Shown here piece after piece: positions 12,108-32,415 of a DNA stretch of 64,000 bases. Numbering within the stretch: position 1 is the stretch's first letter; the number at the start of each line of letters is the position of its first letter. Below the pieces are notes generated by a model. The model made no database searches. It saw nothing but the letters and a program-made list of their open reading frames with translations, and was not told the origin of the DNA. Source of the stretch: Methanobacteriota archaeon (lineage in GTDB: Archaea > Thermoplasmatota > Thermoplasmata > SG8-5 > JAGLSY01); the NCBI GenBank assembly GCA_020697715.1, contig JAEHCO010000001.1, positions 2,222-66,221 on the forward strand, given 5' to 3'. The position numbers were made by a program, and so were the translations under genes.

Positions 12108-12194
12108 AGATGGGGAATCGGAATCATATGATAAAATATTTTCCAGAATAATATATGACCCAGAGCGGTGTTGGTCGCATTCTATTGCTTAGAA

Positions 12195-12824
12195 CTATTC
12201 CTGCCCGTCTTCTTCCTTAACAGCGGGCTTATCAGCCTCTGGAACCTGGCCTTGTGCTTCAGATGGTACAACAGGTGCCTCCCATCCAATGGGCTTTAGC
12301 TCGTCCTCATCATCAGCAGCCTCTTCCAACATCTGGTACCATTTTAAGGTATCAGACCTGAGTACCGCCCTTTCACGTTTGAATATGTGTGAAAGGAGTG
12401 CGTATTCACCTACGACCTTTCCTATAATGGTCGATACAAGAGCAACCGGGAATATTGTTACAATGGCTATCGATATATTCTGAATGACAAATACATAATA
12501 GAGGCCTATAAAGTCTCCAGCTACCCCGAACAATAGGGGTGAGAAAAGGGACAATGATATCAGTGATACTGCGGATATAGTCATTATTATGGAAGCGAAA
12601 ACTGAATGATGTAGCTCATCCATTGTTGTCAGGATGCCCAAAATAAAGCCGCAGAACAGGGGACTTATGAAAAGGATCTCACCACTCAGTGAGAGGCCCG
12701 TGGCGAATTTCAGGAAATTGCCACCAAAGAAAAAGGCCACTATAACTCCAGCGGATATAGACCATATCAGAAGCTTCAGCTTCCTTTTATTATCCATAGC
12801 ACCTGTATTTACATCATCCTGCAT
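12195..12824 (-). CDS. Multi-pass membrane protein with acidic cytoplasmic tail
   Basis: 209 aa; 4-5 hydrophobic helices then Glu/Asp/Pro-rich C-terminus; overlaps upstream gene by 11 nt. Confidence 0.5.
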   Translation of the reverse strand: MQDDVNTGAMDNKRKLKLLIWSISAGVIVAFFFGGNFLKFATGLSLSGEILFISPLFCGFILGILTTMDELHHSVFASIIMTISAVSLISLSLFSPLLFGVAGDFIGLYYVFVIQNISIAIVTIFPVALVSTIIGKVVGEYALLSHIFKRERAVLRSDTLKWYQMLEEAADDEDELKPIGWEAPVVPSEAQGQVPEADKPAVKEEDGQE

Positions 12825-13395
12825 TTACACTCACCTTGTCTCCATAATAGAACATGATAGAATCCTGAAGCCCACTGGAACCCATTATCTTGTAATGAGC
12901 CCTGCCCTGTATCAACACATATCCTGAACCATCTTCTGTGACATCCGTCAACTTTGAATAATATTCATTGTCAGAGTCAAATGTTATCGGTATATTGTAC
13001 ATTTGGCCGGTCCCTGCTTCCAATATATCATTTCCACTTGCGGAAGAGGTTATCATGCCAATATAATCATTGTAATCGGGACGAACTATAGGTTCATCGG
13101 AGATATATATCGAATATTCAATAAGATATATGTCAACGTCCAATCTGCTTTCAATATTAGAGACCGCGATATTTACATTTACGATCGAGTGATTATCTAA
13201 ATACGTAACGGATACTGAATCATCACCGTATGGCACATACGCACCAATATTCATCTGTGTCTCGGTTACTTTAGCATATTCATTGGATATGTAATAGATA
13301 CCATAAGCAGATATGAGAGCAGTAATTATTATACAGATGCCGATGATCTCAATGATCTCGCTTCTTTTTTTTATCTTGCCTGTATCGCTCATCAT
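12814..13395 (-). CDS. Membrane-anchored extracellular protein (single N-terminal TM)
   Basis: 193 aa; N-terminal hydrophobic helix then hydrophilic Tyr/Ser/Asp-rich domain; promoter carries conserved TTGTAC motif. Confidence 0.5.
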   Translation of the reverse strand: MMSDTGKIKKRSEIIEIIGICIIITALISAYGIYYISNEYAKVTETQMNIGAYVPYGDDSVSVTYLDNHSIVNVNIAVSNIESRLDVDIYLIEYSIYISDEPIVRPDYNDYIGMITSSASGNDILEAGTGQMYNIPITFDSDNEYYSKLTDVTEDGSGYVLIQGRAHYKIMGSSGLQDSIMFYYGDKVSVNAG

Positions 13396-13427
13396 ATGGA
13401 GAATGTCAGACTAATATAAAAGCGAAG

Positions 13428-13470
13428 TTGTACGGTTTTTTGTATAATATAAAATCTTTGTGGTACAGGC
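13428..13470 (-). promoter_or_regulatory. Conserved promoter/operator motif, copy a (TTGTACGG-N-TTTTGTATAATAT-N-TTTGTGGTACA)
   Basis: About 45-bp motif shared with 23232-23286 and 24505-24545; 33-75 bp upstream of the 12814-13395 start; contains TATA-like TTATATTA on the gene strand. Confidence 0.45.
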
Positions 13471-13560
13471 TTTTGTATTCCTACCATTTATAATATCCAG
13501 AACATGAAGAGATACCATATTGAAAATTAATAAAAATATAAAATTCGAAAATTAATGGGA

Positions 13561-13587
13561 TCAGCTTCGGCCTACGACCGAAGCTGA
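13561..13587 (-). terminator. Perfect 10-bp-stem hairpin followed by T-rich tract, likely terminator of the opp operon
   Basis: TCAGCTTCGG-CCTACGA-CCGAAGCTGA inverted repeat 17 nt downstream of oppF stop; T-rich run on gene strand. Confidence 0.5.
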
Positions 13588-13603
13588 CATTATGTTTTTC
13601 CTA

Positions 13604-14713
13604 TCAGGCTACCTGACGAGCTTCTGGAGCTTCAGTTGCTGGCTCGGTCTTTTCAGCAGCCTTCACCTGATCCTCAAAGGTTGGGATCTTAGGTTCATCC
13701 GTGCGGAAGTTTATATCTCCTGCAAAGTGGCATTGTATGAAGTGACCGGTCTTGATCTCCTTGGTATCAGGCTTCTTCTCCTTACATATATCCTTTGCAT
13801 AAAGACATCTTGGGTGGAATGAACATCCAGAAGGTATGTTCATAGCTGATGGAAGATCTCCCTTGATCTCCGTCCTGCCACGCTCCATAGCCGGATCTGG
13901 TATCGGAACCGCGGAAAGAAGAGCTCTGGTGTATGGGTGATTAGAGTCGTGTATGATCTCCTCAGCTGGTGCGTATTCCACAATATTTCCCAGATACATA
14001 ACAGCGATATGATCGCTCATGTACCTTGACACGGAAAGATCGTGTGTTACGAACATGAAGGGGATATTGTATCTATCCTTCAGACCTAGCATGAGGTTCA
14101 TAATTCCTGCCCTGATCGATACATCCAGCATGGATACAGGTTCATCAGCCACTATGAACTCCGGCCTTAATGCCAGTGTTCTCGCGATAGCAACCCTCTG
14201 TCTCTGTCCACCACTCAACTCGTGTGGGTATCTTCCCATGTATTCGGAGGATGGTTTCAATTCCGCATACTCAAGTGCCTTTGCGACCATGTCCTCTCTT
14301 TCCTCATAGGATTCTCCAACACCGTGAACGAGCAATGGCTCCACCACTGTGCCGAATACCGTGAACCTTGGATTCAGAGATTCATATGGATCCTGGAAGA
14401 TCATCTGGACCTTTCGCCTGAAATCTTTCAGTTCAGAACCTTTCTTCGCGGCAATGTCCTCACCCTGGAAGAACATGTTACCTGCAGTGGGGTCTTCCAA
14501 TCGCACAAGGAGTCGACCGACCGTGGTCTTACCACAGCCACTCTCTCCAACAAGTCCAAGGATCTTTCCCTTTTTGACCTGGAATGAGATATCATCGACC
14601 GCATGTACGAACATAGATTCCTTACTCATCAATGATGATAGGAAACCTCCGGACATTTCGAAATATTTTCTTAGATTCACCACATCGAATATTACATCAT
14701 CGTCTGCCATCAT
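13604..14713 (-). CDS. Oligopeptide/dipeptide ABC transporter ATP-binding protein (OppF/DppF-like)
   Basis: 369 aa; Walker A GESGCGKTT, ABC signature LSGGQRQR, Walker B, C-terminal Opp-type extension. Confidence 0.9.
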   Translation of the reverse strand: MMADDDVIFDVVNLRKYFEMSGGFLSSLMSKESMFVHAVDDISFQVKKGKILGLVGESGCGKTTVGRLLVRLEDPTAGNMFFQGEDIAAKKGSELKDFRRKVQMIFQDPYESLNPRFTVFGTVVEPLLVHGVGESYEEREDMVAKALEYAELKPSSEYMGRYPHELSGGQRQRVAIARTLALRPEFIVADEPVSMLDVSIRAGIMNLMLGLKDRYNIPFMFVTHDLSVSRYMSDHIAVMYLGNIVEYAPAEEIIHDSNHPYTRALLSAVPIPDPAMERGRTEIKGDLPSAMNIPSGCSFHPRCLYAKDICKEKKPDTKEIKTGHFIQCHFAGDINFRTDEPKIPTFEDQVKAAEKTEPATEAPEARQVA

Positions 14714-15738
14714 CTCACCTCCTTCAATTGGCCATTGAACAGCTCAAGCGCGAAATGACACAAGGAAAAGTGGTTTGGTTCAACCTCGATCGTCTCTGGT
14801 TCCTGGTCCTTACATATTTCCTTTGCATATTTGCATCTTGGATGGAATTTACATCCAGATGGTGGGTTTGCAAGGTCAGGTGGTGAACCAGGGATAGAAT
14901 AGAGTGGTTTCTTCTCACCAATGATACTTGGGAAAGAAGCAAGCAGACCCATAGCGTAAGGGTTCGCCGGTCTCTCAAATACCGCATCTATATCACCGTA
15001 CTCGAAGATCCTTCCAGCATACATGATACCTATCTTCTCAGCCACTTCCGCGACCACAGATATATCATGAGTGATGATGATCATAGCCATGCCCAGTTTC
15101 CTCTGAAGATCTCTGATCTCCGCCAGGACACGATCCTGCATGATCACATCCAATGCAGTCGTTGGTTCATCAGCTATAATGAGCTTCGGGTTGCAGGCAA
15201 GAGCCATAGCGATCATACCCCTCTGTCTCATTCCACCACTGTACTCGTGTGGATATCCATCTATTCTCTCAGAATCAAGCCCAACGAGCTTGAAAAGCTC
15301 AAGAACTCTTTTTCTTGCTTCCTGCTTAGTGATATCATCATGAGCCCTTATGGCTTCCGCTATCTGGTCTCCGACCTTAAATACAGGATTGAAAGCATTC
15401 ATCGCACTCTGGAAGATCATAGCTACTTCATCCCATCTAAAGTCGACCATGGTATTCTCCACGAACTTCTTTCTCTTTCTGGGGGATAGAGCCATTTCCT
15501 CTTCGCTTCCGGCAATGACCGTACCGTCGAAGGTTATCGTACCTTCGACGATGTCACCGTTATCTGGAAGAAGCCTGGTGATCGCATAGGCTGCTGTTGT
15601 CTTACCACATCCAGATTCACCGACAAGGCCAAGGGTCTCCCCTCTGTCCAGCTTTAGTGTTACTTTCTCGACAGCCTTGACTGTTCCTCTTTGAATGCCG
15701 TAATGCACACTTACATTATCTATTTCTAACAGTGCCAT
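14710..15738 (-). CDS. Oligopeptide/dipeptide ABC transporter ATP-binding protein (OppD/DppD-like)
   Basis: 342 aa; Walker A GESGCGKTT, signature YSGGMRQR; 4-nt overlap with oppF-like gene. Confidence 0.9.
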   Translation of the reverse strand: MALLEIDNVSVHYGIQRGTVKAVEKVTLKLDRGETLGLVGESGCGKTTAAYAITRLLPDNGDIVEGTITFDGTVIAGSEEEMALSPRKRKKFVENTMVDFRWDEVAMIFQSAMNAFNPVFKVGDQIAEAIRAHDDITKQEARKRVLELFKLVGLDSERIDGYPHEYSGGMRQRGMIAMALACNPKLIIADEPTTALDVIMQDRVLAEIRDLQRKLGMAMIIITHDISVVAEVAEKIGIMYAGRIFEYGDIDAVFERPANPYAMGLLASFPSIIGEKKPLYSIPGSPPDLANPPSGCKFHPRCKYAKEICKDQEPETIEVEPNHFSLCHFALELFNGQLKEVR

Positions 15739-15743
15739 TTAAA

Positions 15744-18047
15744 TCACCTCCTCCTCAATCTTGGATTAACGATCTCATCAAACGCCCTTCCAAGAAGGAA
15801 GAAAGACAAACATATCAGAGTGATACATATGCCAGGCGGCAATAGCCACCACCATGCGGTCAATGCATTTGCATGCTGAACGAAGTTCAACATCATTCCC
15901 CAGCTCATAGTACGCGGGTCACCCAATCCAATGAAACTCAATGAAGCTTCAGAAAGGATAGCACCACTGACATAGAAGGTCATGTACAGAACAGCCAATG
16001 GGAGAATGTTCGGAGCTATGTGCCTGAACATGATCCTCGTTTTGCTTGCTCCAGTGACCCTGGCTGAGTCGATGAAAGGCCTTTCCTTCAAAGTAAGGAC
16101 CTCTGATCTTATGACCCTGGCAGTTCCACCCCAACCTACAATACCAATTATGAACACGATATTGAACACACTCGGTTCCATCAGCGCCGCAAGAATAATA
16201 AGCAGCGGAAGGCCAGGAAGTGTCAAGATAACATCAGTGAACCTCATCAATATTATATCGACATTACCACCGTAATAACCTGAGACCAAACCTACGAGCA
16301 TACCTATGCTAATAGAGAATATAGCCGCAGCGAAACCGACCAATAGAGCTATTCTGGAACCCAGAAGAAGCTGGCTGAGAATATCTCTACCCTGAGCATC
16401 TGTGCCTAGTGGGTATTCAATACCACTTGCTGGCTTCTCATCATCTGGTACTGCCCATGTTGGCTTCAATGGAGCGATCATGGTTCCAGTACATCTGTGA
16501 GAATATACCTTTCCAGGCATAGGGTTACCATCTGAATCCAGGTATGAAGTGACAATAACCACTTCTCCCTCACCAATATGCTGAGATGTTTCGAGAGCGA
16601 AATCATCGTATACGATAGGTGAACCAAATGTCACGCCTTGTAAGTTCTTTCTCCATTTGACTATACCAGTCGCATCCAGACCATATATCTGGGTGAAATC
16701 ATCTGTTGGAGTTGCTGTGTCATTGGTATTCTTCACTGCGACAAAGATAAGTCTTGAGTAGACAGAGTCATAATATGGTGCTGCCACACAGGAAGTGTCC
16801 AAAACACCTTTGAGAGTTGTGTCAAAGTCCATCTTCACCATTGACTCAGCAGTGTCCACTCTTGCAGTTGTTGATAATCTATAGATATGGCCAGTATCTG
16901 AACCAACCACAAGCTCATCACCATCGGCTCTAACAGATGGTGAAGTAAGGTTTCCGAGATCAAGTTCTGTAAGTGTTACGTCGATCTTGTATCCACCTTC
17001 CCATCCAGTCAATGGTGTCAGATCAGCTGTCAATACATGAACCCTACCATCATCCGTCGATGCATAGACATTGGTTGCAGCACATACTGGAAATGATGAC
17101 CAATGGTCCCTTCTGTCATTAGCAGCTATCTCACCGGGATTGTCTCCAGGGTAATCATATAATGGATCATATAGATCATATTCACCGATCTTAGTTCCAT
17201 CCGATGTATTGAATGCGTAGATGATACCATCGCTAGATCCAACATAGACCTGTTCACCAGTAGAAGATATCGCTGGTTGAGTCAGTGTTGAATTTGATAC
17301 CTGGATGGTAGCCCTGATAGTGTACGAACCATCTATAATGTATAATGAGCCAGATTCAGTAGATGCGGCAAAGAGATCATCGCTGTTTAGAGTACTAACC
17401 GCATCCTGATAAATATCCACACCGGAAACAGAAGCACCTAGAATGAAAGTCTCTACATCATCACCTGATGGTGGATATTCTGAATCTAATCCATCATGAA
17501 GGAGATACAGGACACCACTCTGTGTTCCAAAGAGCAGTCTGAAATCCATTCCATTCGGGCTCCTCTTGGCTCCGAAGTTCATAGCTTCAACATTGGTCGT
17601 GATCTCAGAGTTGGTCTCAAATGCACCTGACCATCCTCGCCATGCTTTGCTTCCATCAGCTGATGATTTGGCATAAAGACCATAAGGCGATATGACCGAA
17701 TTCATATCGCTAAGAGGCAGACCACCCGCCACATAGAACCTGTCAACTTGCTTGGCATTTGCAGAGGGTATTATCCTCGCAGCCGCACTGTTAGTCACTA
17801 TTCCATTGGTTGTCTGGTCCAAGAAATTCTCAACATTGACCACGTCCTCATCAGGAGCAAACCAGTCTATCGGATGCTTCAATCCCATGAAGGGGGAGGC
17901 AGCTGCGATCAAAATGAAAGCGATCATTATTCCAAGTCCCAGAAGACCTACTTTATTCTCCTTAAAGAGATTCCAGTTATGTGTAAATGAACGTCTTGAG
18001 TCTCTGAACTTTTCTTTTATTTGTTTTGATGTAACCATTTTTCTCAC
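15744..18047 (-). CDS. ABC peptide transporter permease (OppC/DppC-like) with about 450-aa extracytoplasmic insertion after TM1
   Basis: 767 aa; canonical DppC N-terminal TM and C-terminal core (LGTDAQGRDILSQ…); insertion has beta-propeller-like repeats (YVGSSDGIIYAF, VYASTDDGRVHVL). Confidence 0.8.
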   Translation of the reverse strand: MRKMVTSKQIKEKFRDSRRSFTHNWNLFKENKVGLLGLGIMIAFILIAAASPFMGLKHPIDWFAPDEDVVNVENFLDQTTNGIVTNSAAARIIPSANAKQVDRFYVAGGLPLSDMNSVISPYGLYAKSSADGSKAWRGWSGAFETNSEITTNVEAMNFGAKRSPNGMDFRLLFGTQSGVLYLLHDGLDSEYPPSGDDVETFILGASVSGVDIYQDAVSTLNSDDLFAASTESGSLYIIDGSYTIRATIQVSNSTLTQPAISSTGEQVYVGSSDGIIYAFNTSDGTKIGEYDLYDPLYDYPGDNPGEIAANDRRDHWSSFPVCAATNVYASTDDGRVHVLTADLTPLTGWEGGYKIDVTLTELDLGNLTSPSVRADGDELVVGSDTGHIYRLSTTARVDTAESMVKMDFDTTLKGVLDTSCVAAPYYDSVYSRLIFVAVKNTNDTATPTDDFTQIYGLDATGIVKWRKNLQGVTFGSPIVYDDFALETSQHIGEGEVVIVTSYLDSDGNPMPGKVYSHRCTGTMIAPLKPTWAVPDDEKPASGIEYPLGTDAQGRDILSQLLLGSRIALLVGFAAAIFSISIGMLVGLVSGYYGGNVDIILMRFTDVILTLPGLPLLIILAALMEPSVFNIVFIIGIVGWGGTARVIRSEVLTLKERPFIDSARVTGASKTRIMFRHIAPNILPLAVLYMTFYVSGAILSEASLSFIGLGDPRTMSWGMMLNFVQHANALTAWWWLLPPGICITLICLSFFLLGRAFDEIVNPRLRRR

Positions 18048-18051
18048 CTCC

Positions 18052-20025
18052 TCACAATTGAACCCTCGGGTCTAGATATGCATACAATATATCGGCAAAC
18101 ATGTTTCCGAGAACGGTCATCAATGCCATTATGTAGAATGCACCCTGAACGATTGGATAGTTGTGTGTTAAAGTTCCTCTAACGAGGAGCGTTCCCATTC
18201 CAGGCCACGAAAAGATCGTTTCTGTCAACACACCACCACTGATGATACCACCGAGTGAAAGTGCCATCGATGTCACAACAGGCAACATCGCGTTCCTTGC
18301 TGCGTGTCTGTACACGACCTGTCTGGTCTTCAGACCCTTTGCCTTGGCCGTTGTAATGAAATCCTCACCCATGACCTCAAGCATAGAGCTTCGCATCAGA
18401 AGGATAGTGCCTGCAAGACCTAAGACCGTCAAGGTCATCAGTGGTAAGGTCAAATGCCATAACACATCAAGGAAATATTCCATACCTAAAAGTGTCTCAC
18501 CTGTAGCAGAAACACCTCCAAGACCACTTAGAGGGAACCATTCAAGTTGAACAAAGAACACCCATTGAGCTATCAAAGCAGACCAGAAGATCGGCATAGA
18601 ATACAAGAATAGTGTTACCACGATTGTACCTAATTCAATAGCTGTACCTCTTCTCCATGCAACTACGACACCAACTACAATACCTATCATGTAGCTCAAT
18701 ATCAAAGAGCTTCCGAAAAGAAGTAGAGTTGGTGGCACTCTTTCTATGATAACATCCCATACTGGTCTGTTATCTTCGAAGGAATTGCCAAAATCGAACA
18801 GAAGCATTGATTTCATATAGAAAGCGAATTGTTCGAACATTGTCCTGTCCACAATATCAGTAGGATGACTCAGAAAGATCGTTGCTACATGCCCATCTGG
18901 TTGGGTTATAACTCCTTCCAAAGCACCGGCAACTCTGTCCCCATTGCTCTTAGTGGCTGATACATTCACCATTATGGTGGGAATTGATGCCTGATCATAG
19001 ATGAATGGGTATTCGGCTTCTAATCCTTCACCGACCCTGTGCATTGTGAAATCCGACAGGATCGTTGAGTCTGCTGGTAATACAAGACTGGAAGAAGCAG
19101 CATTGACAGGGAAAGATGAAGATATCTCAATTCCATTATCTGTCTCAACCACCATACTGAACATACCATTTATCGCAATAGGATAAGAACCATTGAACCA
19201 GGTTCCATCTTGTGTGAGAGTTAATGGTTGGGATGTGATATTGTCTGGTGATGTCACTCTGATATCAGCGGTTGTCGCACCTTCTATTTGTGTCGAAATT
19301 ATGATATTTTCGCCATTGACAGCCACCTCATTATCGGCCATTGCAGTTCCAAGGTTCCACATTTTGAATGATGGAGTAACTGCCACGATATCATCTGATA
19401 AATCCGTAGTCACTTCGAACGTCATAGCTGCAGTTGCAATATTCTGATAGATGTCCCTTGCCTCAAACACAACTGTGTAATTCCTGTTAGCACCAACAAT
19501 AGACGTGTGATCGATCAATGCCATGTATGCACCAACTACGACCTCATTCATGACGAGATCGGAAGTGGTTTCATACCCAGGGTCCGTGACACTGTACTTA
19601 ACATTCCTTATACCCGCCACATCTTCGGCTTCAAATATCACAGCAATGGTGCTATTATCTAATGCCAGTGCGTCAATATTCCATATTGAAGGCGGGTTAA
19701 GATCAGTAATTGTGGGATCCATATTTACATCAAATGATGTCTGAACAGTATCCCCTTCAGTCTCGACCTCGATAGTATAATGTCCAATCCTCGTTGGGTT
19801 GAAATTATATATGAAATGATTTCCCGGATATTCTACCTCTTTGGCGAAACCATATCTCAAGGCTATTTGATCCTTTTCAATCTCTGTTATTCCTGGCTTC
19901 ATGAAAAGGCCCATTGCCGCATCTCCAGGCATCAGCCTGAACAATACGAACAAAAGCACCAGGACAATCAACAGGGTGACTACCATATGTATGGTTCGTT
20001 TAACCAGATATTTCCTCAATCTCAT
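18052..20025 (-). CDS. ABC peptide transporter permease (OppB/DppB-like) with about 350-aa extracytoplasmic insertion after TM1
   Basis: 657 aa; DppB-type N-terminus and C-terminal permease core; inserted beta-rich Ig-like domain. Confidence 0.8.
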   Translation of the reverse strand: MRLRKYLVKRTIHMVVTLLIVLVLLFVLFRLMPGDAAMGLFMKPGITEIEKDQIALRYGFAKEVEYPGNHFIYNFNPTRIGHYTIEVETEGDTVQTSFDVNMDPTITDLNPPSIWNIDALALDNSTIAVIFEAEDVAGIRNVKYSVTDPGYETTSDLVMNEVVVGAYMALIDHTSIVGANRNYTVVFEARDIYQNIATAAMTFEVTTDLSDDIVAVTPSFKMWNLGTAMADNEVAVNGENIIISTQIEGATTADIRVTSPDNITSQPLTLTQDGTWFNGSYPIAINGMFSMVVETDNGIEISSSFPVNAASSSLVLPADSTILSDFTMHRVGEGLEAEYPFIYDQASIPTIMVNVSATKSNGDRVAGALEGVITQPDGHVATIFLSHPTDIVDRTMFEQFAFYMKSMLLFDFGNSFEDNRPVWDVIIERVPPTLLLFGSSLILSYMIGIVVGVVVAWRRGTAIELGTIVVTLFLYSMPIFWSALIAQWVFFVQLEWFPLSGLGGVSATGETLLGMEYFLDVLWHLTLPLMTLTVLGLAGTILLMRSSMLEVMGEDFITTAKAKGLKTRQVVYRHAARNAMLPVVTSMALSLGGIISGGVLTETIFSWPGMGTLLVRGTLTHNYPIVQGAFYIMALMTVLGNMFADILYAYLDPRVQL

Positions 20026-20101
20026 TTAAACATCTCCGATTCCTTCCTATCTATCTCTCTCGGGACTCCCGAAAAAAAGAAAAGGAAGGGCACTAGCTAA
20101 G

Positions 20102-23089
20102 CTAGGCCCTTATTCTTCTGAACACTGCTGTTGCGACAGCTGTGATCGAGAACAATGAAGCGATCAGCAAGAACGAGGGGAACGGTGTCTCCTGTTCAGT
20201 ACCGGGAGTGACAGTATCCTCATCAACATCTAGTATACCGTCTCCATCATCGTCGTCATCGTCTACGTCTGGGATGCCGTCATTGTCATCATCAGTGTCG
20301 GTGGCATCTGGAATACCGTCGCCGTCAGTATCGATTTCAACGGTGCCAGGGCCAGTGACCTCATCCAGATTAATGACATTTATCGGGATGGACTGTGTTC
20401 CATTCTTGTAGTCCTTCATATTGCCACCATCCGAATACTGACCGAATGCTATCACACTTACTGTGTACTCTTTGTCTGCGTCTATGTCCGCTGCCTGGAA
20501 CGAGAAGGTCGCTTCTCCGTTTGAATCTGTTGTTGCGAACAATGGCGAGACTATGGGACCTTCAGGGTCCACCTGTATCACCACATTCATTCCAGATAAT
20601 GGTTCATAATCATTACCATTCTTGGTCACAGTCGCAGTAACACTTGTCAAACCAGGTGCATCAGCTGCATCCTTATCATCCACCACATCAGGGTTGGCTT
20701 CCAGCTGTACTGCAAGGAAGTCCACACCTTCTGGATATGCGGTCATCAAGGTCAGTTTATTAGGTGCATCGTCGTATCCTTCGATCTCCGCACTCTTGAT
20801 CTCAATAAGAATACCTGAACCGTTCTTGTAAAGATCTGGGTACAATAATTCATCGTTTGGAACATATGGTGCTGTGAAAGTGGTTCTCAATTTCCCAGTT
20901 GAATCTGTTGTTCCATTGTATACGGACAGTGTTCCATTGGTCACTGCGAGTTCGACAAATGCGTTCTTGACTGGCTCTCTTGTAAGAGATCCATCAGCGT
21001 TCTTCGTGATCCCTGTAATAAGTACATCTACATCGGCAGTTGCATTAGATTCGATAGCTGATACTGTGTTAACGAATCTGGCATTCAACCACTTGTTTGA
21101 TGGTGGTCTCAGTTCAAGGATGGATCTCCAGTTGTATATGGAACCTGATGATCCTGTTACCCAGCCTGTGAACCTGTCTGCACGGTAAGCTTCGATATTG
21201 GTCCTGAAGTAGAGAACATCGTATGGCAGATCGTAAGCAATTGCCGCCTGAGCATCCAATATAAGGTTAAGCCTAGCATCTTCATCTCCAGTTTCCCTTG
21301 CATTATCGATTATCTCATCGAAACTGGTATTGGAATATCCTGGGTAATTCTGACCTGCTGCTGCTGTGCTGGAATGGAAGAAAGCATACAAGAAATCTGT
21401 TGGATCGCTACCAATGCTCCATCCAAGAATGTACATGTCAAAGTCCCTTTGATCAATATGGTTGACAATGGTTCCGAAATCCATAGCAATGGACTCTGCA
21501 TATATACCAACATCCTGCATCTGCTTGGCTATCATCAATCCAGCCTGTGCTCTTATCGGATCATAATCTGCAGGTGGTGTATATATCTCTATTTTGCCAC
21601 CATCTGCATTGCCGATGTTCGAGCCATCTGGGTTAAGCCACCAGTTACCATTTCCTGGCTCGGCTCCTGGATTGGTCAATTTATATCCAGCCCTTGAAAG
21701 AATATCTTTGGACTCCTCTGGGTCAAATGCATACCTTGGAATTGTATCATTGTACCATGTACTGATAGATGATACAGGTCCATCTCCAGGTATACCGAAG
21801 TTCTGAAGCAGTCTCTGAACAATGGTCTGCTTATCGATACAGTGAGCTATGGCCTTCCTTAGTGGCATACCTACATCATTACCATTATCGTCGTATCCGA
21901 AGGATCTCTTGTTTGGTCTCATATTGTAAGCCAAGTAGAAGAAACCTTTCTCAGCAGATTGCTTGACACCAAGATCTGGCTCGTTCATTATTTCCTGAAC
22001 GAAGGTTGGTGGAATGGACCATGCAATGTAGTCCACATCATTGTTCTTCAGAGCCAATACGGCCTGTTCTGCTGTCTTGTAGATCTTGAAAACCATTGCC
22101 TCGATGGTGGGTTGTTTTGCAACTTCATTGACATCGTAGGTAGGGTTCCAGCCCTCTTTGTAAAAGTGCTCCCTGTATGTGGTGATCTTTGAGCTAACAC
22201 CGACATTCCATGAGGAGAACTTGAATACTCCACTGCCAACTGGGTTTGGGTTGTCCCAAGCCAAAGCTGCTCCGGAATCCCATGCTTGTGGGCTGTCCTT
22301 GGTGTAGCCTGGATCTGACCAGATGAGCATTCCATCCTGTGGCTGTCCTGATTCTGTGTATCCCCATACGTGGTATGGGATTAAGAAAGCTGATAGTGTG
22401 TTCCTGAAAAAGTCAGCGAAAGGTGTCTGGAGCTCGAACCTCAGTCCGGCCTGCAGTTTATCCGCACTCTCGTAAACCTTCTGGATGTGTAGGTAATTTG
22501 TGTCAGTGTGGTTTGTGCCGGCTTCTCCGCCCTTGTCCATCAAACACTTGACACTGGATACCCAGTCTGGAAGCTGTGACTGAACGTGATATGCGAACAT
22601 AACATCTCTAATGGTCATCTGTGTTCCATCATGCCATGTCACGTCTGTAAAATCGTAGAAGATCGTTGTCTCAGCGAGACCTGTCATTCCAGGATCCCAG
22701 TCTTCCTCTGGTGTGAATCCAAAGATGCCCTGGTTCATGTCGTCCCAGCCCCAGGCGTCATCCGCGCCCTTGCCGGTACCATTGGCAGAGCCAACGGCTA
22801 TGTAAGGGATTATCTCATCCGTGTTTGGATCGGAGTTAAGTGGACCCTCATAGAGATATCCAATAACATTCCATGTCCAGACATCCCCTGCAACTAGGGG
22901 ATTCAGGGTCTTGAGATCATCCTGCATAGCTACTTTCAAAATATATGTGTCATCTTCACTCTGTCTTGTACCCGCATCTGGGGCCGCAACAGCTACTGGG
23001 AAAGCGCTTAATACCATCACAAATACAAATGCTATTGATAAAGCTGCTATCCCCTTGCTCCTAATACTATCATTTTTGACCATTGTCAT
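20102..23089 (-). CDS. ABC transporter substrate-binding protein (family 5, peptide/nickel type) with C-terminal Ca-binding repeat and TM anchor
   Basis: 995 aa; signal peptide, SBP family-5 core, C-terminal DTDGDGIPD…DDDNDGIPD thrombospondin-type-3-like repeats then hydrophobic anchor. Confidence 0.8.
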   Translation of the reverse strand: MTMVKNDSIRSKGIAALSIAFVFVMVLSAFPVAVAAPDAGTRQSEDDTYILKVAMQDDLKTLNPLVAGDVWTWNVIGYLYEGPLNSDPNTDEIIPYIAVGSANGTGKGADDAWGWDDMNQGIFGFTPEEDWDPGMTGLAETTIFYDFTDVTWHDGTQMTIRDVMFAYHVQSQLPDWVSSVKCLMDKGGEAGTNHTDTNYLHIQKVYESADKLQAGLRFELQTPFADFFRNTLSAFLIPYHVWGYTESGQPQDGMLIWSDPGYTKDSPQAWDSGAALAWDNPNPVGSGVFKFSSWNVGVSSKITTYREHFYKEGWNPTYDVNEVAKQPTIEAMVFKIYKTAEQAVLALKNNDVDYIAWSIPPTFVQEIMNEPDLGVKQSAEKGFFYLAYNMRPNKRSFGYDDNGNDVGMPLRKAIAHCIDKQTIVQRLLQNFGIPGDGPVSSISTWYNDTIPRYAFDPEESKDILSRAGYKLTNPGAEPGNGNWWLNPDGSNIGNADGGKIEIYTPPADYDPIRAQAGLMIAKQMQDVGIYAESIAMDFGTIVNHIDQRDFDMYILGWSIGSDPTDFLYAFFHSSTAAAGQNYPGYSNTSFDEIIDNARETGDEDARLNLILDAQAAIAYDLPYDVLYFRTNIEAYRADRFTGWVTGSSGSIYNWRSILELRPPSNKWLNARFVNTVSAIESNATADVDVLITGITKNADGSLTREPVKNAFVELAVTNGTLSVYNGTTDSTGKLRTTFTAPYVPNDELLYPDLYKNGSGILIEIKSAEIEGYDDAPNKLTLMTAYPEGVDFLAVQLEANPDVVDDKDAADAPGLTSVTATVTKNGNDYEPLSGMNVVIQVDPEGPIVSPLFATTDSNGEATFSFQAADIDADKEYTVSVIAFGQYSDGGNMKDYKNGTQSIPINVINLDEVTGPGTVEIDTDGDGIPDATDTDDDNDGIPDVDDDDDDGDGILDVDEDTVTPGTEQETPFPSFLLIASLFSITAVATAVFRRIRA

Positions 23090-23231
23090 TACCTCCTTAT
23101 ATGATATCCAGCAACGTAAATTCTGATGGAATTCAAGTCCGCTGTAAGTGGTGACTATATTTATATTTTATTGGAATTTGTTTTAGTCATCATTAGTTGA
23201 TATAACATCAGTTCATGGTATAAAAGCAAAC

Positions 23232-23343
23232 TTGTACAGATTTTTGTCTAATATAAATGGTTTGTGGTATAAGGCTTTGTACAAAACATTGTTCTAATGA
23301 TCGATCGGAGCGAATATAACGCCAAAAATCGAGACTTGTACAA
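23232..23343 (-). promoter_or_regulatory. opp operon upstream region with conserved motif copy b and three TTGTACA(A/G) palindromic half-sites
   Basis: Motif at 23232-23286 matches copies a and c; TTGTACA at 23232, 23278 and 23336. Confidence 0.5.
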
Positions 23344-23400: not shown

Positions 23401-24468
23401 TCAGGCAAGTTCATCATTTATGAAATAATGTTTCTTAACACCACTTCTCTCGAACCTAAGAATGTCCTTTCTTACAAGTATATTGAGATTGTAACTTATA
23501 GATTGCTGGCTCATTCCCAATCCTAATGCTATCTCAGACTGGGTCATACCTTCTGCCTGCCTCAGACAATCTATTATGCTAAGCTGGAGATCACTCAACC
23601 TAATTCCCTTGTTCTTAGAGTGCTTGACACCCATTGGATAGAAACGTTTGTAGGTTCCATCTCTATGGGATTTGACAAAGCCCTGCATCTCCAATGTTCT
23701 AAGATGATGGGATAAAGTGCCATTTGTGACCTTCAATTCCTGCTTTATCGCATTATAATGGGAACCTGGATGAGATATGATATGTCCATATATCTGACCT
23801 CGAACGAAATGGTCGAGAACCTCTTCCTTCTTAACTCGAGAGTAAAGCGGGATGAAGACCAGTTTGAGCATACCATATTTACCGACCTCGGTAGCTATGG
23901 CCCCTAGGCCAAGTAATAGAAGAGTGCTTGCCCCTATGTACAAGACCTCCTTCTCTATCTGTGTTATAGGAATAGGAACTGGATCATCAACAGCATCATC
24001 TATGGGTTCATCAGGAAGAAAAAGGATCGTGACCTCCATTGAATCAACAGCGGCCTCATACCCATTATAGGTGGCTAGGGCATTCAGAAGTATGGTATTG
24101 TCCTCGGTCACATATCCAACAATTATGAATTGCGATATGCCATCTATATTAGTCACATCTTCTATAGCGGTTATCGTGACATTGTCAGGAAGGGTGGATG
24201 TCAGGTTCACATTAGCTCCCTGCACTGGCCATTCATTTTCCATGACCTTCACGGTGACATATAAAGAATCATTGGAATTCACAACATCCTGATCTATTAA
24301 GAATTCTATATCAAGATAGCCTTCACTAATACTTGTATCAGAAGATGAGAACATATCATCCGCGCTGACGATAGGCATGAGGGAAAGAGCAGTAAGTGAT
24401 AGAGCTAGTACTACCAAAATACCTATGAAATAGCCTTCTCGGCAAGCTCCGCTCTCATTCCTTCTCAT
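23401..24468 (-). CDS. Membrane-anchored transcriptional regulator with two C-terminal winged-HTH domains (ArsR/MarR-like)
   Basis: 355 aa; N-terminal signal/TM, extracellular domain, second TM, then wHTH segments (YNAIKQELKVTNGTLSHHLRTLE; MTQSEIALGLGMSQQSISYNLNILV). Confidence 0.65.
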   Translation of the reverse strand: MRRNESGACREGYFIGILVVLALSLTALSLMPIVSADDMFSSSDTSISEGYLDIEFLIDQDVVNSNDSLYVTVKVMENEWPVQGANVNLTSTLPDNVTITAIEDVTNIDGISQFIIVGYVTEDNTILLNALATYNGYEAAVDSMEVTILFLPDEPIDDAVDDPVPIPITQIEKEVLYIGASTLLLLGLGAIATEVGKYGMLKLVFIPLYSRVKKEEVLDHFVRGQIYGHIISHPGSHYNAIKQELKVTNGTLSHHLRTLEMQGFVKSHRDGTYKRFYPMGVKHSKNKGIRLSDLQLSIIDCLRQAEGMTQSEIALGLGMSQQSISYNLNILVRKDILRFERSGVKKHYFINDELA

Positions 24469-24504
24469 AATTATAAATATGTAACCGGAGGTATATAAAG
24501 AGAT

Positions 24505-24545
24505 TTGTACGCGGTTTTGTCTAATATTTAAGGTTTGCGGTTTAT
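24505..24545 (-). promoter_or_regulatory. Conserved promoter/operator motif, copy c
   Basis: TTGTACGCGGTTTTGTCTAATATTTAAGGTTTGCGGT, 37-70 bp upstream of the wHTH regulator start; shares identical 13-mer TTTTGTCTAATAT with copy b. Confidence 0.45.
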
Positions 24546-26089: not shown

Positions 26090-28591
26090 TCAGCCCAATC
26101 TATCATACGGATTCTGGGATTCCACATACGAAACAGTACCCTCTTCGGATGGTTTCCCTTCTTCTATTTTTAGGTGACCGCTCTCATCATATTCGTCCTC
26201 ATCTGGCTCAGGCATGTCTGGATCCCTATCATCAGGATGTTGAGACTCAGGCTTTCGTCCAAAACCAAGGCCAGCCAGAACTCCCAGGATACCGGCTATC
26301 GCAGGTGCGATGACCGCCCAAAGAGGGATCTTCTCCTTTTCCACAACCCGAACTTCATCCGTGCCATTGAAGGTCAGAGTAGGCGCATCCAGGAAGTCCG
26401 CCACACCATCACCGTCCGAGTCCGGGGGAAGGGACGTGGCATCAAGAGGATCGGAGCCTGCCAGTATCTCGACGATATCACGCCAGCCATCGCCATCCGA
26501 GTCAGAATCCTCCAATCCATCGGTGAGGTTCAGGGTCTGATTTTGATAAATGACATTGGTATTGTTGCTATACTCGGTCAGATTGGACCAGACCGTGCCA
26601 TTGCTGTACTCGGTCAAGTTCGCCCACTGGGTGCCATTATTGTATTCTGTGAGATTCGCCCACTCTGTGGAGTTGGTGAAGTCTGTGAGATTGTTGTATA
26701 TCTGCTTCTCGATGAAATCTGGATCCATGAAATCCGCCACACCGTCGAGGTCAGCGTCGCCTGGCATGCTGGAATTGTCGGTCGTGTTCGTGCCGGATAT
26801 CACCTCTATTATGTCCAGCCAGCCATCATCGTCATCATCGGTATCTGCGTTATTGCCGATTCCATCGCCATCCGTGTCCAGGCTTTCGAGTGGATCAAAG
26901 GGGAAGATGTCATTGGTGTCCGGAACACCATCATCATCATCATCCAGATCCACAGAATCTGCCAGTCCATCACCGTCAAAGTCAGCAGAGATGGCAAGTG
27001 TGAATTGGGTTGATACCGCATTCCCATTATTGTCTGTGGCTGTCACTTCAACTTCGTAGCTTCCTGCCATATCTGGCCAGCCAGATAGGACCCCGCTGGC
27101 TGAGTCCATCCACAGCCAACTTGCATTGGTATTGATGCTCCATGTATGTGTGTCAGCTCCATCAACATCTGTAAGATCATAATCATTTGAATATAGCTGA
27201 CCAGCTTGGCCAGCGAAGATGTTGGCTGTGTCGATTGTCTGAAGGTCGTTGGTGTTCAGGGCATTGATGATGACATTTGTAGTGAAGGAACGGCCATATC
27301 CGTCTGTCGTGTTGTAAGTGAATCCATCGGTGCCAGTCCAGTTGGCATCAGGCAGGACCGACAGATTATTGCCAGAAAAGGAAACCTGGCAATTTGTTCC
27401 ATTTGAAAAGCCAGTTATCGTGAACTCGTTCTGGTCTGGTGCGTCATTGGCCAGCACGTTGATTATCGTGCTGGTGTCTTCTGTAATATTGAACTCGTCC
27501 CACAATGGGGTGTAGCCCCAGACTATCTTATAGATATTCAGCTCGCTTGGACCATTGTTAATACCTGTGGCAATATACTTATCGTCAGGACTCCATACCG
27601 CACACTGGGTGGTCAAGCCATAGGACACAGTAGAAATCAAAGTTAAGGTTATTCCATCGAAGAAAAAGAGGTAGCACTCTGGATTTCCTCCTGAGACACC
27701 AGCGACAATTAGGTAACGACCGTCAGAGCTCCAGTCTGCTGATAAGAGCGAGTTTGCTGAATTGAAGCTATCGATTATAGTTAGGGTATTACCATTAAAC
27801 ATCAGAACACTACACTCATATCCACCAGCTCCAGTGTCGCCTGAGATAGCCAAGTATTGACCATCAGGCCTCCAATTGACATCCTCTACATGAGCACCGT
27901 GTGAAAATTGAGCGACCATTATCAATGAAGATCCTGTAAAAAAGAGAACACGCACCTCAACAGCTGCATTGGTATCACCGCCCATTGCAAGATAGTTGCC
28001 ATCAGGGGACCAGTGTACGTCATTTACATCAGCACCGTGGTTGTAGCTGTCTAACTGGAAAAGGCTGGTACCATCAAAAATGAGGATCCAGACTAAATTG
28101 TCCACGCCACAGGAGGCAATATAATTGCCGTTTGGGCTCCAAGATACAGATAATACATCTGCCGAAGTAATGAAGCTGTCTATTTGGGTCAACATTGCTC
28201 CATTGAAAGCGAACACTCTAACACTATCATCCATACCACCCACAGCAATGTACTGGCCGTCTGGGCTCCAGTCGACAGCGTAACAGCTGAAGGCAAACGA
28301 ATAGCTGTCTATCTCATAGAGGTTATTGTTTAGTAAACGCAATACCCTAAGATTATCGCTTAGGCTTGCGATGGCCACATATTGGCCATCGGGGCTCCAT
28401 GCAATATCTCTAATCCCGTCATTATCATCATATTGCTCCAACAAGAATTTATCGGCGTATTGGGTCTCGAAAGTGGGACTTACTGCCTCTTGAGGCTGTG
28501 CTCCTTTTACATTGTCCAGCATCATAAACAATGAGCTGAAAACTAACATTAAACTTATCATCAATACGGTAATTTTCCTCATATCCTTCAC
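26090..28591 (-). CDS. Large membrane-anchored surface protein: beta-propeller head, Ig-like domain, Ca-binding TSP3-like repeats, NxT sequon stalk, TM, acidic tail
   Basis: 833 aa; signal peptide; seven WSPDGQY(I/V)A-type repeats; DFDGDGLADSVDLDDDDDG…; 12-aa repeats EWANLTEYNNGT; C-terminal hydrophobic helix and Asp/Glu/Pro tail. Confidence 0.75.
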   Translation of the reverse strand: MKDMRKITVLMISLMLVFSSLFMMLDNVKGAQPQEAVSPTFETQYADKFLLEQYDDNDGIRDIAWSPDGQYVAIASLSDNLRVLRLLNNNLYEIDSYSFAFSCYAVDWSPDGQYIAVGGMDDSVRVFAFNGAMLTQIDSFITSADVLSVSWSPNGNYIASCGVDNLVWILIFDGTSLFQLDSYNHGADVNDVHWSPDGNYLAMGGDTNAAVEVRVLFFTGSSLIMVAQFSHGAHVEDVNWRPDGQYLAISGDTGAGGYECSVLMFNGNTLTIIDSFNSANSLLSADWSSDGRYLIVAGVSGGNPECYLFFFDGITLTLISTVSYGLTTQCAVWSPDDKYIATGINNGPSELNIYKIVWGYTPLWDEFNITEDTSTIINVLANDAPDQNEFTITGFSNGTNCQVSFSGNNLSVLPDANWTGTDGFTYNTTDGYGRSFTTNVIINALNTNDLQTIDTANIFAGQAGQLYSNDYDLTDVDGADTHTWSINTNASWLWMDSASGVLSGWPDMAGSYEVEVTATDNNGNAVSTQFTLAISADFDGDGLADSVDLDDDDDGVPDTNDIFPFDPLESLDTDGDGIGNNADTDDDDDGWLDIIEVISGTNTTDNSSMPGDADLDGVADFMDPDFIEKQIYNNLTDFTNSTEWANLTEYNNGTQWANLTEYSNGTVWSNLTEYSNNTNVIYQNQTLNLTDGLEDSDSDGDGWRDIVEILAGSDPLDATSLPPDSDGDGVADFLDAPTLTFNGTDEVRVVEKEKIPLWAVIAPAIAGILGVLAGLGFGRKPESQHPDDRDPDMPEPDEDEYDESGHLKIEEGKPSEEGTVSYVESQNPYDRLG

Positions 28592-28648
28592 CCTGATTAT
28601 CTCTAAAAGGTAATCGGGCGGCGGGATAATAACATTTCCGTAATATTG

Positions 28649-31600: not shown

Positions 31601-32359
31601 GTCAGAAACCGTACCATAATTTACTCCTAAGAGCCCTCCAACCTGATTGGAGCCCGAAGCGATACCAATACTACTGAGGTTTTGCAATGAGCCAGCACTG
31701 AGCCCGATCAAAACACCAATATAGACATTGCCAGTGGATGTGCCGTTGGAATTACAATCACTTATGATTGATGAACCACTTGAGGAACCAAGCAAGAGCC
31801 CTGCATAGCTGGTATTTGTATTTACTGAACCCTGACAGGAGATCCCCGTAATGATCCCTGAAGCACTACCGGCTAAACCTCCAACAGTATGATTACCTTT
31901 TATGTTAAGGCCAATGAAGATGATGTCCCTGATCTCGCTGTTTGGACCGGCATGACCAAAAAGTCCGACATAGCGTTGAGAGGAACGGTTGATGAAAAGG
32001 TCATTAATACTGTAGCCCTGGCCATCTAAGGAACCTTGAAAATCATCGACCCAATTACCAATTGGATCAAAACCCTCGAAGGCAGAACCATTTAAGTTCC
32101 ATGTTGAGGTCGCGCTGGCATCGATATCATTCATCAGAACATAATGGGCATTCAGATCCAGCTCCATTTCCTGAAGCTGGTTCACATTTGTTACCTGATA
32201 TGGATCTCCAGGAGTTCCGACACCCCCGCCTGAGAACAATGGGGCAGGAACTATCTCCATTCCCTCAACATCCGTAGTCATGTCCAGCATCACGAATGAT
32301 GAGCTGAAGATCATAGCTAAACTTATCAATAATGTAATAGATTTTTTCATATCCTTCAC
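28649..32359 (-). CDS. Giant surface protein with GLUG-motif repeat array, Ig-like domains, TSP3-like Ca-binding repeats, NxT sequon stalk, TM anchor
   Basis: 1236 aa; signal peptide; more than 20 repeats of VGGFVGxNxGxITNCYSTG type; C-terminal module paralogous to 26090-28591 and 32416-35610. Confidence 0.75.
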   Translation of the reverse strand: MKDMKKSITLLISLAMIFSSSFVMLDMTTDVEGMEIVPAPLFSGGGVGTPGDPYQVTNVNQLQEMELDLNAHYVLMNDIDASATSTWNLNGSAFEGFDPIGNWVDDFQGSLDGQGYSINDLFINRSSQRYVGLFGHAGPNSEIRDIIFIGLNIKGNHTVGGLAGSASGIITGISCQGSVNTNTSYAGLLLGSSSGSSIISDCNSNGTSTGNVYIGVLIGLSAGSLQNLSSIGIASGSNQVGGLLGVNYGTVSDSHSEATAIGTSDEIGGFIGLNDDSQLTNCYSTGSADGRDDVGGFIGHDSGFNGIIVNCFSTGDATGTGDRVGGFVGTSQSTINNCYATGNATAIGNNAGGFTGFHSSREITNCYATGLVSGPQSTGGFIGNMATNTDISYCYSTGDVSGSYSGGFAGSGGNGGSITNSYSTGNVSGAGTIGGFMGYSTFGHIIDICYSTGLVNSTSNKFGGFVGWNHGPITSSYSTGMVTGSGDNVGGFVGINENNIDDCYSTGNTNGGTYVGGFAGANTNTITNSYCQGSASGNSNIGGFIGSNAGNISNSYSTDSASGTIQIGGFVGQNDGPITNCYSIGNAIGYELYIGGFVGQNADSIMNCYSTGSASASGIFGISDYVGGFVGRNAPGATISNCYSSGDASASAIGSGNYVGGFAGYNNDGSITNCYSTGGVISGVQWIGGFVGYNIGAITNCYSTSSANGTAGNVGGFVGCNGGDITNSYSTGNASSGSMIGGFVGQNNVIGFIMNSYSTGNASGASSIGGFAGIDLNSTMNCFWDTNTSGNPSTASGIGKTTIEMKQELTFTGWDFTDIWGIMETVTYPFLTPISLIVTTTQVTAMDTCLEDSIYVIDLDCTPQPHPGFNTITDWNLDTNMTGWLSVSDSGVLTGTPENLDVGTYYANITAIDSINREGYFNYTLIVINSEPIITTNDIEITNTGALYEVDYDSTDDPSTTWSLAGNATGWLTIDSSGIISGTPSTTEDGTYNVEIIVDDGNGGIDTQTFILTVNLDSDRDGDPDKTDLDDDNDGTPDTSDDLPLDPTEDTDTDGDGIGNNADLDDDWDGWNDAIEIAGGFDPLDNTSIPSDVDNDTVADYMDPDFLIVIEYNNQTIWDNQTVNQTVWDNVTEYSNNTIWNNETVPEYHNTTIPEYHNNTIWNNETTDPVTITETVSETPTWAYGALIAAIVFGALAVFFAERGVSGRKPEVAEETPEPEAEPEVEAEETEEPDTP

Positions 32360-32415
32360 CCGGCTTCCTCTGAATGGGAATCGGGTGGCAAGATAATAAC
32401 ATTTCCGTAATATTG

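Follow-up and report, generated by a model that had tools for sequence, protein, structure and literature searches.

A putative membrane-bound transcription regulator and a conserved direct-repeat operator beside an Opp/Dpp/Nik-type transporter operon in uncultured Thermoplasmata

The stretch of DNA analysed here, 64,000 nucleotides of contig JAEHCO010000001.1 (assembly GCA_020697715.1; hereafter the window, with positions counted from its first letter), comes from an archaeon of the Thermoplasmata and carries at 23401-24468 the gene for a 355-residue protein that combines an extracellular domain, a transmembrane (TM) helix and two winged helix-turn-helix (wHTH) domains. This regulator most likely controls the adjacent peptide-type uptake transporter through a DNA site that, by sequence comparison, is conserved across distantly related uncultured archaea. 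On balance, we think that it is a type-I transmembrane, one-component and autoregulated transcription factor, probably an activator, of the ATP-binding cassette (ABC) operon next to it and of a small unit of membrane-protein genes.

It is poorly understood how archaea, in which two-component systems are not abundant, perceive their surroundings. The locus described here offers a clear topology, a sharp operator, a regulon of three promoters and paralogues as natural controls, and is thus testable in vitro even though the organisms are uncultured. These Thermoplasmata lineages are thought to live on detrital protein, and one of the related genomes is labelled Proteinoplasmatales; the control switch of a large and unusual uptake system in presumed detrital-protein feeders is therefore of ecological interest.

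Architecture and topology of the regulator

The gene and the parts of its product are as follows, all on the reverse strand.

23401..24468 (-): regulator gene, 355 amino acids (aa) from ATG; signal peptide, immunoglobulin (Ig)-like ectodomain, TM helix, juxtamembrane helix, wHTH1 and wHTH2
24361..24468 (-): aa 1-36, putative signal peptide with a basic n-region, a hydrophobic core at aa 15-33 and a V-S-A cleavage motif
24019..24321 (-): aa ~50-150, Ig-like beta-sandwich, predicted extracellular (AlphaFold2, Big_1, Foldseek)
23893..23958 (-): aa 171-192, single predicted TM helix, a helix in the AlphaFold2 model and conserved in 53 of 53 homologues
23836..23889 (-): aa 194-211, juxtamembrane helix with the motif [ST]E-x-G-K-Y...P-L-Y-S-R (AlphaFold2, alignment)
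23635..23829 (-): aa 214-278, wHTH1, recognition helix TNGTLSHHLRTLE (PF24266, AlphaFold2, PDB 5duk_A)
23419..23592 (-): aa 293-350, wHTH2, ArsR-type, recognition helix SQQSISYNLNIL (HTH_20, MarR_2, HTH_24)

Judged by its conservation, the reading frame is a real gene: 245 homologues are found at E<=1e-3, nearly all of 320-355 aa and with the same domain set, in metagenome-assembled genomes (MAGs) of the Thermoplasmata/Thermoplasmatota. The closest genome with a homologue is MAG SF.bin11 (GCA_020696385.1; 73% identity), and the names that databases give to these proteins are generic, for example "winged helix-turn-helix transcriptional regulator".

The first-pass annotation of this locus had proposed an extracellular domain, a TM segment and two cytoplasmic wHTH domains. 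This architecture is borne out by the charge and hydrophobicity of the chain, by helix-turn-helix (HTH) profiles matched above their cut-offs and by an AlphaFold2 model. The Kyte-Doolittle 19-residue mean exceeds 1.6 at only two segments, aa 15-33 (2.42) and aa 175-193 (1.93). The N-terminus looks like a cleavable Sec-type signal peptide, with a signal-peptidase motif before residue 37 in which position -1 is Ala in 49 of 53 homologues and position -3 is Ala, Val, Ser or Thr in 50. A lipoprotein signal was rejected for want of a lipobox, as was a type IV-pilin-like signal, whose R-E-G-Y motif is not conserved. Basic residues are distributed unevenly around the TM helix, the alignment mean being 4.7 Lys/Arg in the 25 residues after it and 0.8 in the 15 before it; the ectodomain itself has 2 Lys/Arg as against 28 Asp/Glu, and carries three N-x-S/T N-glycosylation sequons (N66, N88 and N96). 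Because of the hydrophobic peaks, the signal-peptidase motif and this Lys/Arg distribution, both HTH domains are assigned to the cytoplasm and the Ig-like domain to the outside of the cell.

The AlphaFold2 model, built on 53 homologues, has a mean predicted local distance difference test (pLDDT) score of 85. From the N-terminus it shows a helix (aa 11-30), a beta-sandwich (aa 51-149) whose pLDDT exceeds 96, a linker (aa 150-170) that is disordered, acidic and rich in Pro, the TM helix (aa 171-192), the juxtamembrane helix (aa 194-211) and two alpha1-alpha2-alpha3-beta-beta units (aa 214-278 and 293-350). For the ectodomain, Pfam Big_1 gives a weak match below its cut-off (aa 62-126), and Foldseek returns the Ig domains of the S-layer protein SbsC, the complement MG4 domain and the C-terminal domain of ZirS. 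In the juxtamembrane segment, E194, G196, P207, L208, Y209 and R211 are invariant in the orthologue alignment, and the segment is also kept in paralogues.

The first wHTH domain (aa 223-282) matches PF24266, HTH_HVO_0163_N, with 53.5 bits against a cut-off of 31, a match that recurs in all family members examined, and it aligns with PDB 5duk_A at E 4.5e-7. The second (aa 291-343) exceeds the cut-offs of the Pfam families HTH_20 (52.6 bits), MarR_2 (46.1 bits), HTH_24 (44.4 bits) and MarR; the regulator is also above the cut-offs of HTH_5 and of the NCBIfam ArsR/SmtB model HTH_metalloreg, NF033788 (66.8 versus 55 bits). The profile search thus places both domains above curated cut-offs, as first proposed. 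In structure, wHTH2 superposes on AntR (6uvu) with a root-mean-square deviation (rmsd) of 1.2 A over 62 residues at 32% identity, and single wHTH domains also resemble PagR and the AspA-DNA complex. When the tandem is compared as a whole, using a cytoplasmic-only model, its analogues are weak (RPC34, ESCRT-II Vps22, ScpB, SelB and PF0095; TM-score 0.35 or less, rmsd above 9 A), so that its binding geometry on DNA cannot be inferred from a solved analogue.

A direct-repeat operator at three promoters

The operator is 26 nt long, TAkACAAAA-N5-TACAAAT, a direct repeat with a 12-bp period that abuts the transcription factor B (TFB) recognition element (BRE) and the TATA box of three promoters in the window.

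24503..24528 (-): operator of the regulator promoter, half-sites GACAAAA (24515-24521) and TACAAAT (24503-24509), 12 bp apart
24492..24499 (-): TATA box TTTATATA of the regulator promoter, 31 nt before ATG, with the same geometry in other loci
23231..23281 (-): operator of the binding-protein gene and ABC operon, four direct half-sites from 23281, 23269, 23248 and 23236 (spacing 12, 21, 12)
23219..23225 (-): TATA box TTTTATA of the binding-protein promoter, ~130 nt upstream of ATG, in invariant columns of a 15-promoter alignment
13427..13477 (-): third operator, four direct half-sites from 13477, 13465, 13444 and 13432, upstream of a gene for a 193-aa protein
13414-13421 (-): TATA box of the 193-aa gene, 26 nt before its ATG at 13395

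That the regulator gene carries in its own promoter a motif shared with the transporter had been noted from the letters of the window, and this motif proves to be real and specific, conserved in both promoters (24503-24528 and 23230-23255) and far above chance. In all of the seven loci compared first, both promoters have TTTATAyTAkACAAAA-N4-GTACAAAT followed by the TATA box. An alignment of 15 target promoters resolves a tandem 33-bp unit with four direct half-sites at 0, 12, 33 and 45, each pair of which precedes a TATA-like stretch, and the regulator's own promoter has the proximal pair only. Its operator overlaps the stop codon (24528-24530) of the DUF531 gene upstream.

Scored with a position weight matrix, the regulator site reaches 36.4 bits, the proximal pair of the binding-protein operator (match at 23230-23255) 33.5 bits and the third operator (match at 13426-13451), which was never in the training set, 33.0 bits. 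A 26-nt matrix trained only on the sites of other genomes gives 34.1, 29.9 and 32.3 bits for the same three, which are exactly the sites that it finds in the window (29.9-34.1 bits); the next best match has 11.2 bits, and the maximum among the 200 dinucleotide shuffles that served as background is 18.4. Across 805 kb of related archaeal loci, matches of at least 25 bits lie before the regulator gene or a binding-protein gene, plus one after the last ATPase gene in locus L009, and 180 kb of bacterial control loci yielded two matches, both below 18 bits. At a threshold of 14 bits, 32 of 35 loci have an operator before the binding-protein gene, and 27 of 39 have one before the regulator gene.

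Two arrangements outside this basic pattern support the view that co-regulation is determined by the operator. In L043, a complete chromosome (CP070767), a second giant SBP_bac_5 paralogue of 1242 aa with repeated Ig-like C-terminal domains (5570-9398) is preceded by an operator of its own. It is located upstream of the regulator, which is thus flanked by two operator-bearing binding-protein genes. The 193-aa gene stands directly behind the ATPase genes in four lineages, and where it is separated from them by ~200 nt, in the window and in L009, it has its own operator and TATA box. The operator region also varies locally: in L006 (~9100-9400) the operator/promoter region of the binding-protein gene is tandemly duplicated (~190 bp), one copy having a half-site spacer longer by one base. 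Among orthologues the recognition helices and the half-site cores are both nearly invariant; covariation between them across lineages was sought by eye, and the variation was too small to convince.

The transporter operon and its linkage to the regulator

The remaining genes of the proposed regulon encode the following proteins.

20102..23089 (-): giant, membrane-anchored solute-binding protein, 995 aa; SBP_bac_5 (Pfam), Big_1-like C-terminal region, poly-Asp stretch and C-terminal TM anchor
13604..20025 (-): two enlarged permeases (BPD_transp_1 in each) and two ATPases (ABC_tran and oligo_HPY in each; Pfam)
12195..13395 (-): two membrane-protein genes under the third operator, for 193 aa (N-terminal TM helix, beta-rich ectodomain) and 209 aa (multi-TM, acidic tail)

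The regulator gene had been described as the first gene upstream of a peptide transporter. It does directly precede an ABC operon with the components of Opp/Dpp/Nik (PepT-type) importers, namely an SBP_bac_5 protein, two BPD_transp_1 permeases and two oligo_HPY ATPases. The word "peptide" is not established: the binding protein and the permeases reach no NCBIfam equivalog cut-off, the best equivalogs, Opp4A, Opp4B and Opp4C, being far below theirs (for example 90 versus 650 bits), and nickel, dipeptide and glutathione models match the transporter proteins as well. Since no cut-off is approached, we treat the system, going by these protein profiles, as an Opp/Dpp/Nik-type importer for which peptides are a candidate substrate only. 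The permeases, of 657 and 767 aa, have large inserts, and the second carries a PQQ/BamB-like beta-propeller. These elaborations of binding protein and permeases (13604-23089) are kept in all related loci. The 193-aa and 209-aa proteins have no Pfam or NCBIfam match; a homologue of the former comes after the second ATPase in L009, L022, L025, L036 and L044, and both may be unrecognised accessory subunits of the transporter.

The pairing of regulator and transporter persists at identities as low as about 40%, with changing genes upstream, as the first-pass annotation would lead one to expect. On contigs whose homologues have 73, 56, 44, 43, 45 and 40% identity, the same giant binding protein and permeases come after the regulator, and the genes before it vary by lineage (DUF531/FolD, RHH/FtsZ, LSM/PGM, DZR/AFOR). 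A genome scan with one genome per species returned 58 archaeal loci, 42 of them with the orthologue signature, of which 37 have at least 1.5 kb of downstream sequence and are informative. Among these Thermoplasmata loci, the binding-protein gene lies 146-745 bp downstream of the regulator in 29, at 3-7.4 kb in six, and is absent in two. Bacteroidota loci in the same scan (L067-L075) were spurious single-HTH matches and served as negative controls only.

In L003/L012 (~11100-15700) the regulator gene is parted from the binding-protein gene by an insertion sequence with a DDE_Tnp_1 transposase and by small open reading frames, and the two operators are retained. In one clade (L023, L031, L038 and L055) the binding-protein gene is ~7.4 kb from the regulator and has a weaker variant of the operator, with CACAG or CACAA as first half-site; at the regulator itself these four loci have no detectable operator.

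Promoter geometry and the mode of control

The TATA boxes 31 and 26 nt before ATG indicate that the operator-adjacent TATA is the working one, and imply that the mRNAs of the regulator and of the 193-aa gene would be leaderless. Between the last half-site and TATA lie 3-5 nt, so that the half-site abuts the BRE position, and in none of the three promoters does a half-site overlap TATA or sit downstream of it.

The initial proposal was that the protein senses an extracellular signal and directly regulates the uptake genes, and we likewise infer extracellular sensing and direct DNA binding. In the mechanism that we favour, the tandem wHTH module would bind the TACAAA(A/T) direct repeat with its 12-bp period just upstream of BRE/TATA, where the regulator promoter offers a single pair of half-sites and the target promoters two pairs each. 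The putative regulon would comprise three promoters within 11 kb, those of the regulator gene, the ABC operon and the two-gene membrane-protein unit. Activation is favoured because all the sites lie upstream of BRE/TATA; the factor would aid the recruitment of TFB and the TATA-binding protein (TBP), which would create a positive autoregulatory loop. On the input side we can only speculate. The signal might be an extracellular cue on substrate availability, read by the ectodomain directly or by contact with the anchored binding protein or the permease ectodomains, and relayed through the TM and juxtamembrane segments by oligomerisation or a change in helix packing. The factor might stay in the membrane and act locally on genes whose membrane-protein products are inserted nearby.

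Several observations weigh against this interpretation or complicate it. It is the co-occurrence of protein and site that points to DNA binding by the regulator, and the autoregulatory site falls below 14 bits in 12 of the 39 orthologous loci. The recognition helices of the two wHTH domains differ, yet one half-site is nearly a copy of the other; a pair might thus equally well be bound by a single chain or by one and the same domain of two chains placed head-to-tail, as in OmpR or ToxR. The ectodomain is poorly conserved and has, by alignment and Foldseek, a generic Ig fold in which a pocket is not evident. It has no similarity in BLASTP to the Ig-like region of the binding protein (best E 3.2), and common ancestry of the two regions is unsupported.

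The operator-linked promoter may also not be the sole promoter of the binding-protein gene. A second, very strongly conserved TATA-like element, AAAAyTATAwATATAGTCACC followed by GGAATTCC..GGGATTTC, lies nearer its ATG (23105-23170, reverse strand), and elements at the equivalent position are found in L009, L010, L012, L013, L017, L019, L022, L025, L036 and L005. This element may be a second, possibly constitutive, promoter or the site of another regulator. GC-richer lineages have a GC-rich leader of 120-200 nt in its place. As an RNA element the conserved leader fares poorly (no Rfam match; RNAalifold -0.2 kcal/mol and no compensatory pairs), and a second promoter acting at the DNA level is more likely.

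The same protein, operator and regulon could also be read with the opposite sign. The regulator would then be a repressor that blocks TFB/TBP at the BRE until the extracellular signal releases it from DNA, with negative autoregulation and with the substrate as inducer. The closeness of the last half-site to TATA, where it abuts or overlaps the BRE position, agrees with this, as do the near-consensus TATA boxes beside the operator, which might need no activator; moreover, ArsR/MarR-type wHTH proteins are mostly repressors. What speaks for activation instead is that no half-site lies on or downstream of TATA in the three promoters. In the archaeal dual regulators TrmBL1 and SurR, sites upstream of BRE/TATA are associated with activation. 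The membrane-bound archaeal factor ArnR is an activator as well (PMC6396743). Repression therefore seems to us distinctly the less probable sign of control. The second departure from the activator model concerns where the factor acts. wHTH1 begins ~3 residues after the juxtamembrane helix, a further point against a membrane-embedded factor, since DNA must then approach the membrane closely, which leaves room for proteolytic release. In such a scheme the membrane form would be a latent precursor, from which signal-triggered cleavage near the TM/juxtamembrane segment frees a tandem-wHTH fragment, as in Notch or SREBP. The near-absence of a linker fits this scheme, as do the family-wide conservation of [ST]ExxKY...PLYSR, which equals that of the DNA-binding domains, and the adhesin-like ectodomains of the family, which recall Notch-type receptors. 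However, no protease gene is conserved in the neighbourhoods of the compared loci, the tight adjacency of regulator and targets fits restricted diffusion better than a soluble factor, and ToxR and ChiS (PMC11856585) act while embedded in the membrane. We regard release by cleavage as unlikely.

It could also be that a different, soluble factor reads the operator, while the tandem winged helices make protein contacts as an accessory or scaffold of the transporter, in the manner of ScpB or ESCRT-II. The best fold matches of the whole module (RPC34, ESCRT-II Vps22, ScpB, SelB) do mostly bind protein or RNA, and binding of the operator by the regulator is reached indirectly. These matches are weak by the TM-score and rmsd given above, whereas the single domains fit repressors of the ArsR type that bind DNA closely (1.2 A and 32% identity for 6uvu, with PagR and AspA-DNA as further matches), and both pass curated profiles of DNA-binding HTH domains. 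In addition, paralogue loci lack the operator, which the regulator's own promoter has at the 27 of 39 loci already mentioned. A scaffold role is, in our view, quite improbable, and we retain a membrane-bound DNA-binding activator as the preferred model.

Genes upstream of the regulator

Upstream of the regulator in the window are the DUF531 gene, separated from it by 59 nt in an adjacency kept in the closest relatives only, and then a divergent folD. Beyond folD, at 26090-35610 (reverse strand), three consecutive genes encode very large predicted surface proteins of 833, 1236 and 1064 aa. In the first, a WD40 propeller is combined with Big_9 and He_PIG domains, and the first two share acidic DxDxDG-type repeats, N-x-S/T-rich stalks and C-terminal TM anchors.

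Paralogues and a wider family of receptors

Paralogues of 474-1154 aa from the same genomes share with the regulator the TM helix, the juxtamembrane motif, here [ST]ExxKY...PLY[ST][KR]...LDHFVRGQIYGY, and both wHTH domains, and have large, differing ectodomains. The recognition helix of wHTH2 reads TPPTVNYH in paralogues versus SQQxxSYN in orthologues, and the paralogue loci examined have neither the operator nor a nearby transporter.

At E<=1e-30 an exhaustive search with aa 176-355 returned at least 386 clusters (50% identity), a number that grew to 2324 at E<=1e-10. Among the 150 matches listed, the module lies near the C-terminus of host proteins of about 155-1830 aa. The ectodomains of eight long members contain Big_7 with CarboxypepD_reg, FG-GAP with He_PIG, beta-helix/NosD with Glucodextran_B, cadherin, an SBBP propeller, and CARDB with NPCBM_assoc. 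Proteins of 200-1830 aa that end in this module number in the hundreds (L051-L065; proteins P0127-P0265), and single genomes can encode several of them, for example three in MAG RS_9_17. To join a conserved output module to varied input domains of a surface type is characteristic of receptor families, and the same cytoplasmic tail on hundreds of ectodomains suggests a general and hitherto undescribed archaeal device for outside-in signalling. Our literature search found no paper describing this family in Thermoplasmata, and "HVO_0163" was found only in an acetylome paper; the locus opens a large, unstudied receptor family in archaea.

A bolder idea, in which we place rather little confidence, is that archaeal type-I surface receptors of a large, uncharacterised family, with at least 386 clusters at 50% identity, share the TM-juxtamembrane-tandem-wHTH tail as their output module. 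With ectodomains of adhesin-, glycan- or protein-binding types such as FG-GAP, beta-helix, cadherin, CARDB and beta-propeller, they would turn contact with extracellular polymers or partner proteins directly into promoter-specific transcription, in a Notch-like fashion. At the locus studied here, the Ig-like ectodomain would then read the substrate-loaded binding protein, the signal being passed on by oligomerisation on the direct repeats or by release of the tail.

Comparison with known systems

Membrane-bound one-component transcription factors had been called uncommon when the locus was first annotated, which overstates the case: transmembrane transcription regulators (TTR; Demey et al. 2023) number on average about four per archaeal genome (PMC10269533), and it is their characterisation that is rare. 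In the literature that we searched, ArnR and ArnR1 are the only archaeal membrane-bound transcription factors to have been studied experimentally. With a predicted DNA-binding domain and at least one predicted TM region, the regulator is a TTR by the operational definition of Demey et al., its action at the membrane being a prediction.

The ToxR box is TNAAA-N5-TNAAA. ToxR, CadC and TcpP resemble the regulator in having an extracytoplasmic domain, one TM helix and a cytoplasmic winged helix in one chain, in using direct repeats upstream of the core promoter and in regulating from the membrane (PMC10629549, PMC10269533). They differ in topology, which the regulator reverses by having its sensor at the N-terminus behind a signal peptide and the DNA-binding part at the C-terminus. 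The latter consists of two ArsR/MarR-type wHTH domains rather than one of the OmpR/PhoB type, and faces archaeal TBP/TFB machinery. Trans_reg_C does not match the regulator even at E<=1, and with its ectodomain N-terminal behind a signal peptide we rejected its assignment to the ToxR-like receptors.

ArnR of Sulfolobus acidocaldarius, a membrane-bound one-component activator (PMC6396743), and ArnR1 share with the regulator their being archaeal membrane-bound one-component factors. In contrast to the regulator, ArnR starts with its HTH, followed by a cytoplasmic HAMP-like and sensor region and, at the C-terminus, two TM helices, and it lacks a sizeable ectodomain; its sites are inverted repeats, its targets are archaellum and pilus genes, and it belongs to the Thermoproteota. 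Given the reversed domain order and the lack of a HAMP match, a relationship to ArnR was rejected.

At the level of single domains, both wHTH units are members, above curated cut-offs, of the ArsR/SmtB, MarR and PF24266 groups. ArsR/SmtB and MarR proteins are soluble, form small homodimers on inverted repeats and respond to ligands inside the cell, whereas here two non-identical wHTH domains are fused, tethered to the membrane and associated with direct repeats. On architecture, a membrane protein of 355 aa with two fused, non-identical wHTH domains is not a small soluble ArsR/SmtB homodimer.

TrmB is cytoplasmic and senses imported sugars via a C-terminal effector domain, in which it differs from the regulator; its profile gives a sub-threshold match (20.8 versus 25.6 bits). 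The TrmB family offers the parallel of archaeal wHTH regulators whose genes accompany the binding-protein-dependent ABC transporter operons that they control (PMC4158304).

The closest functional model may be ChiS of Vibrio cholerae, a membrane-embedded regulator that is activated by CBP, the ligand-loaded chitin-binding protein of the uptake system under its control, and brings promoter DNA to the membrane (PMC11856585). ChiS is derived from a hybrid sensor kinase and has two TM helices and an unrelated DNA-binding domain, and a contact between regulator and binding protein is hypothetical in our system. Like ChiS, the regulator would be a membrane-embedded DNA-binding protein in control of an uptake system, and the ChiS/CBP pair serves by analogy as a working model for how the ectodomain might read the adjacent binding protein.

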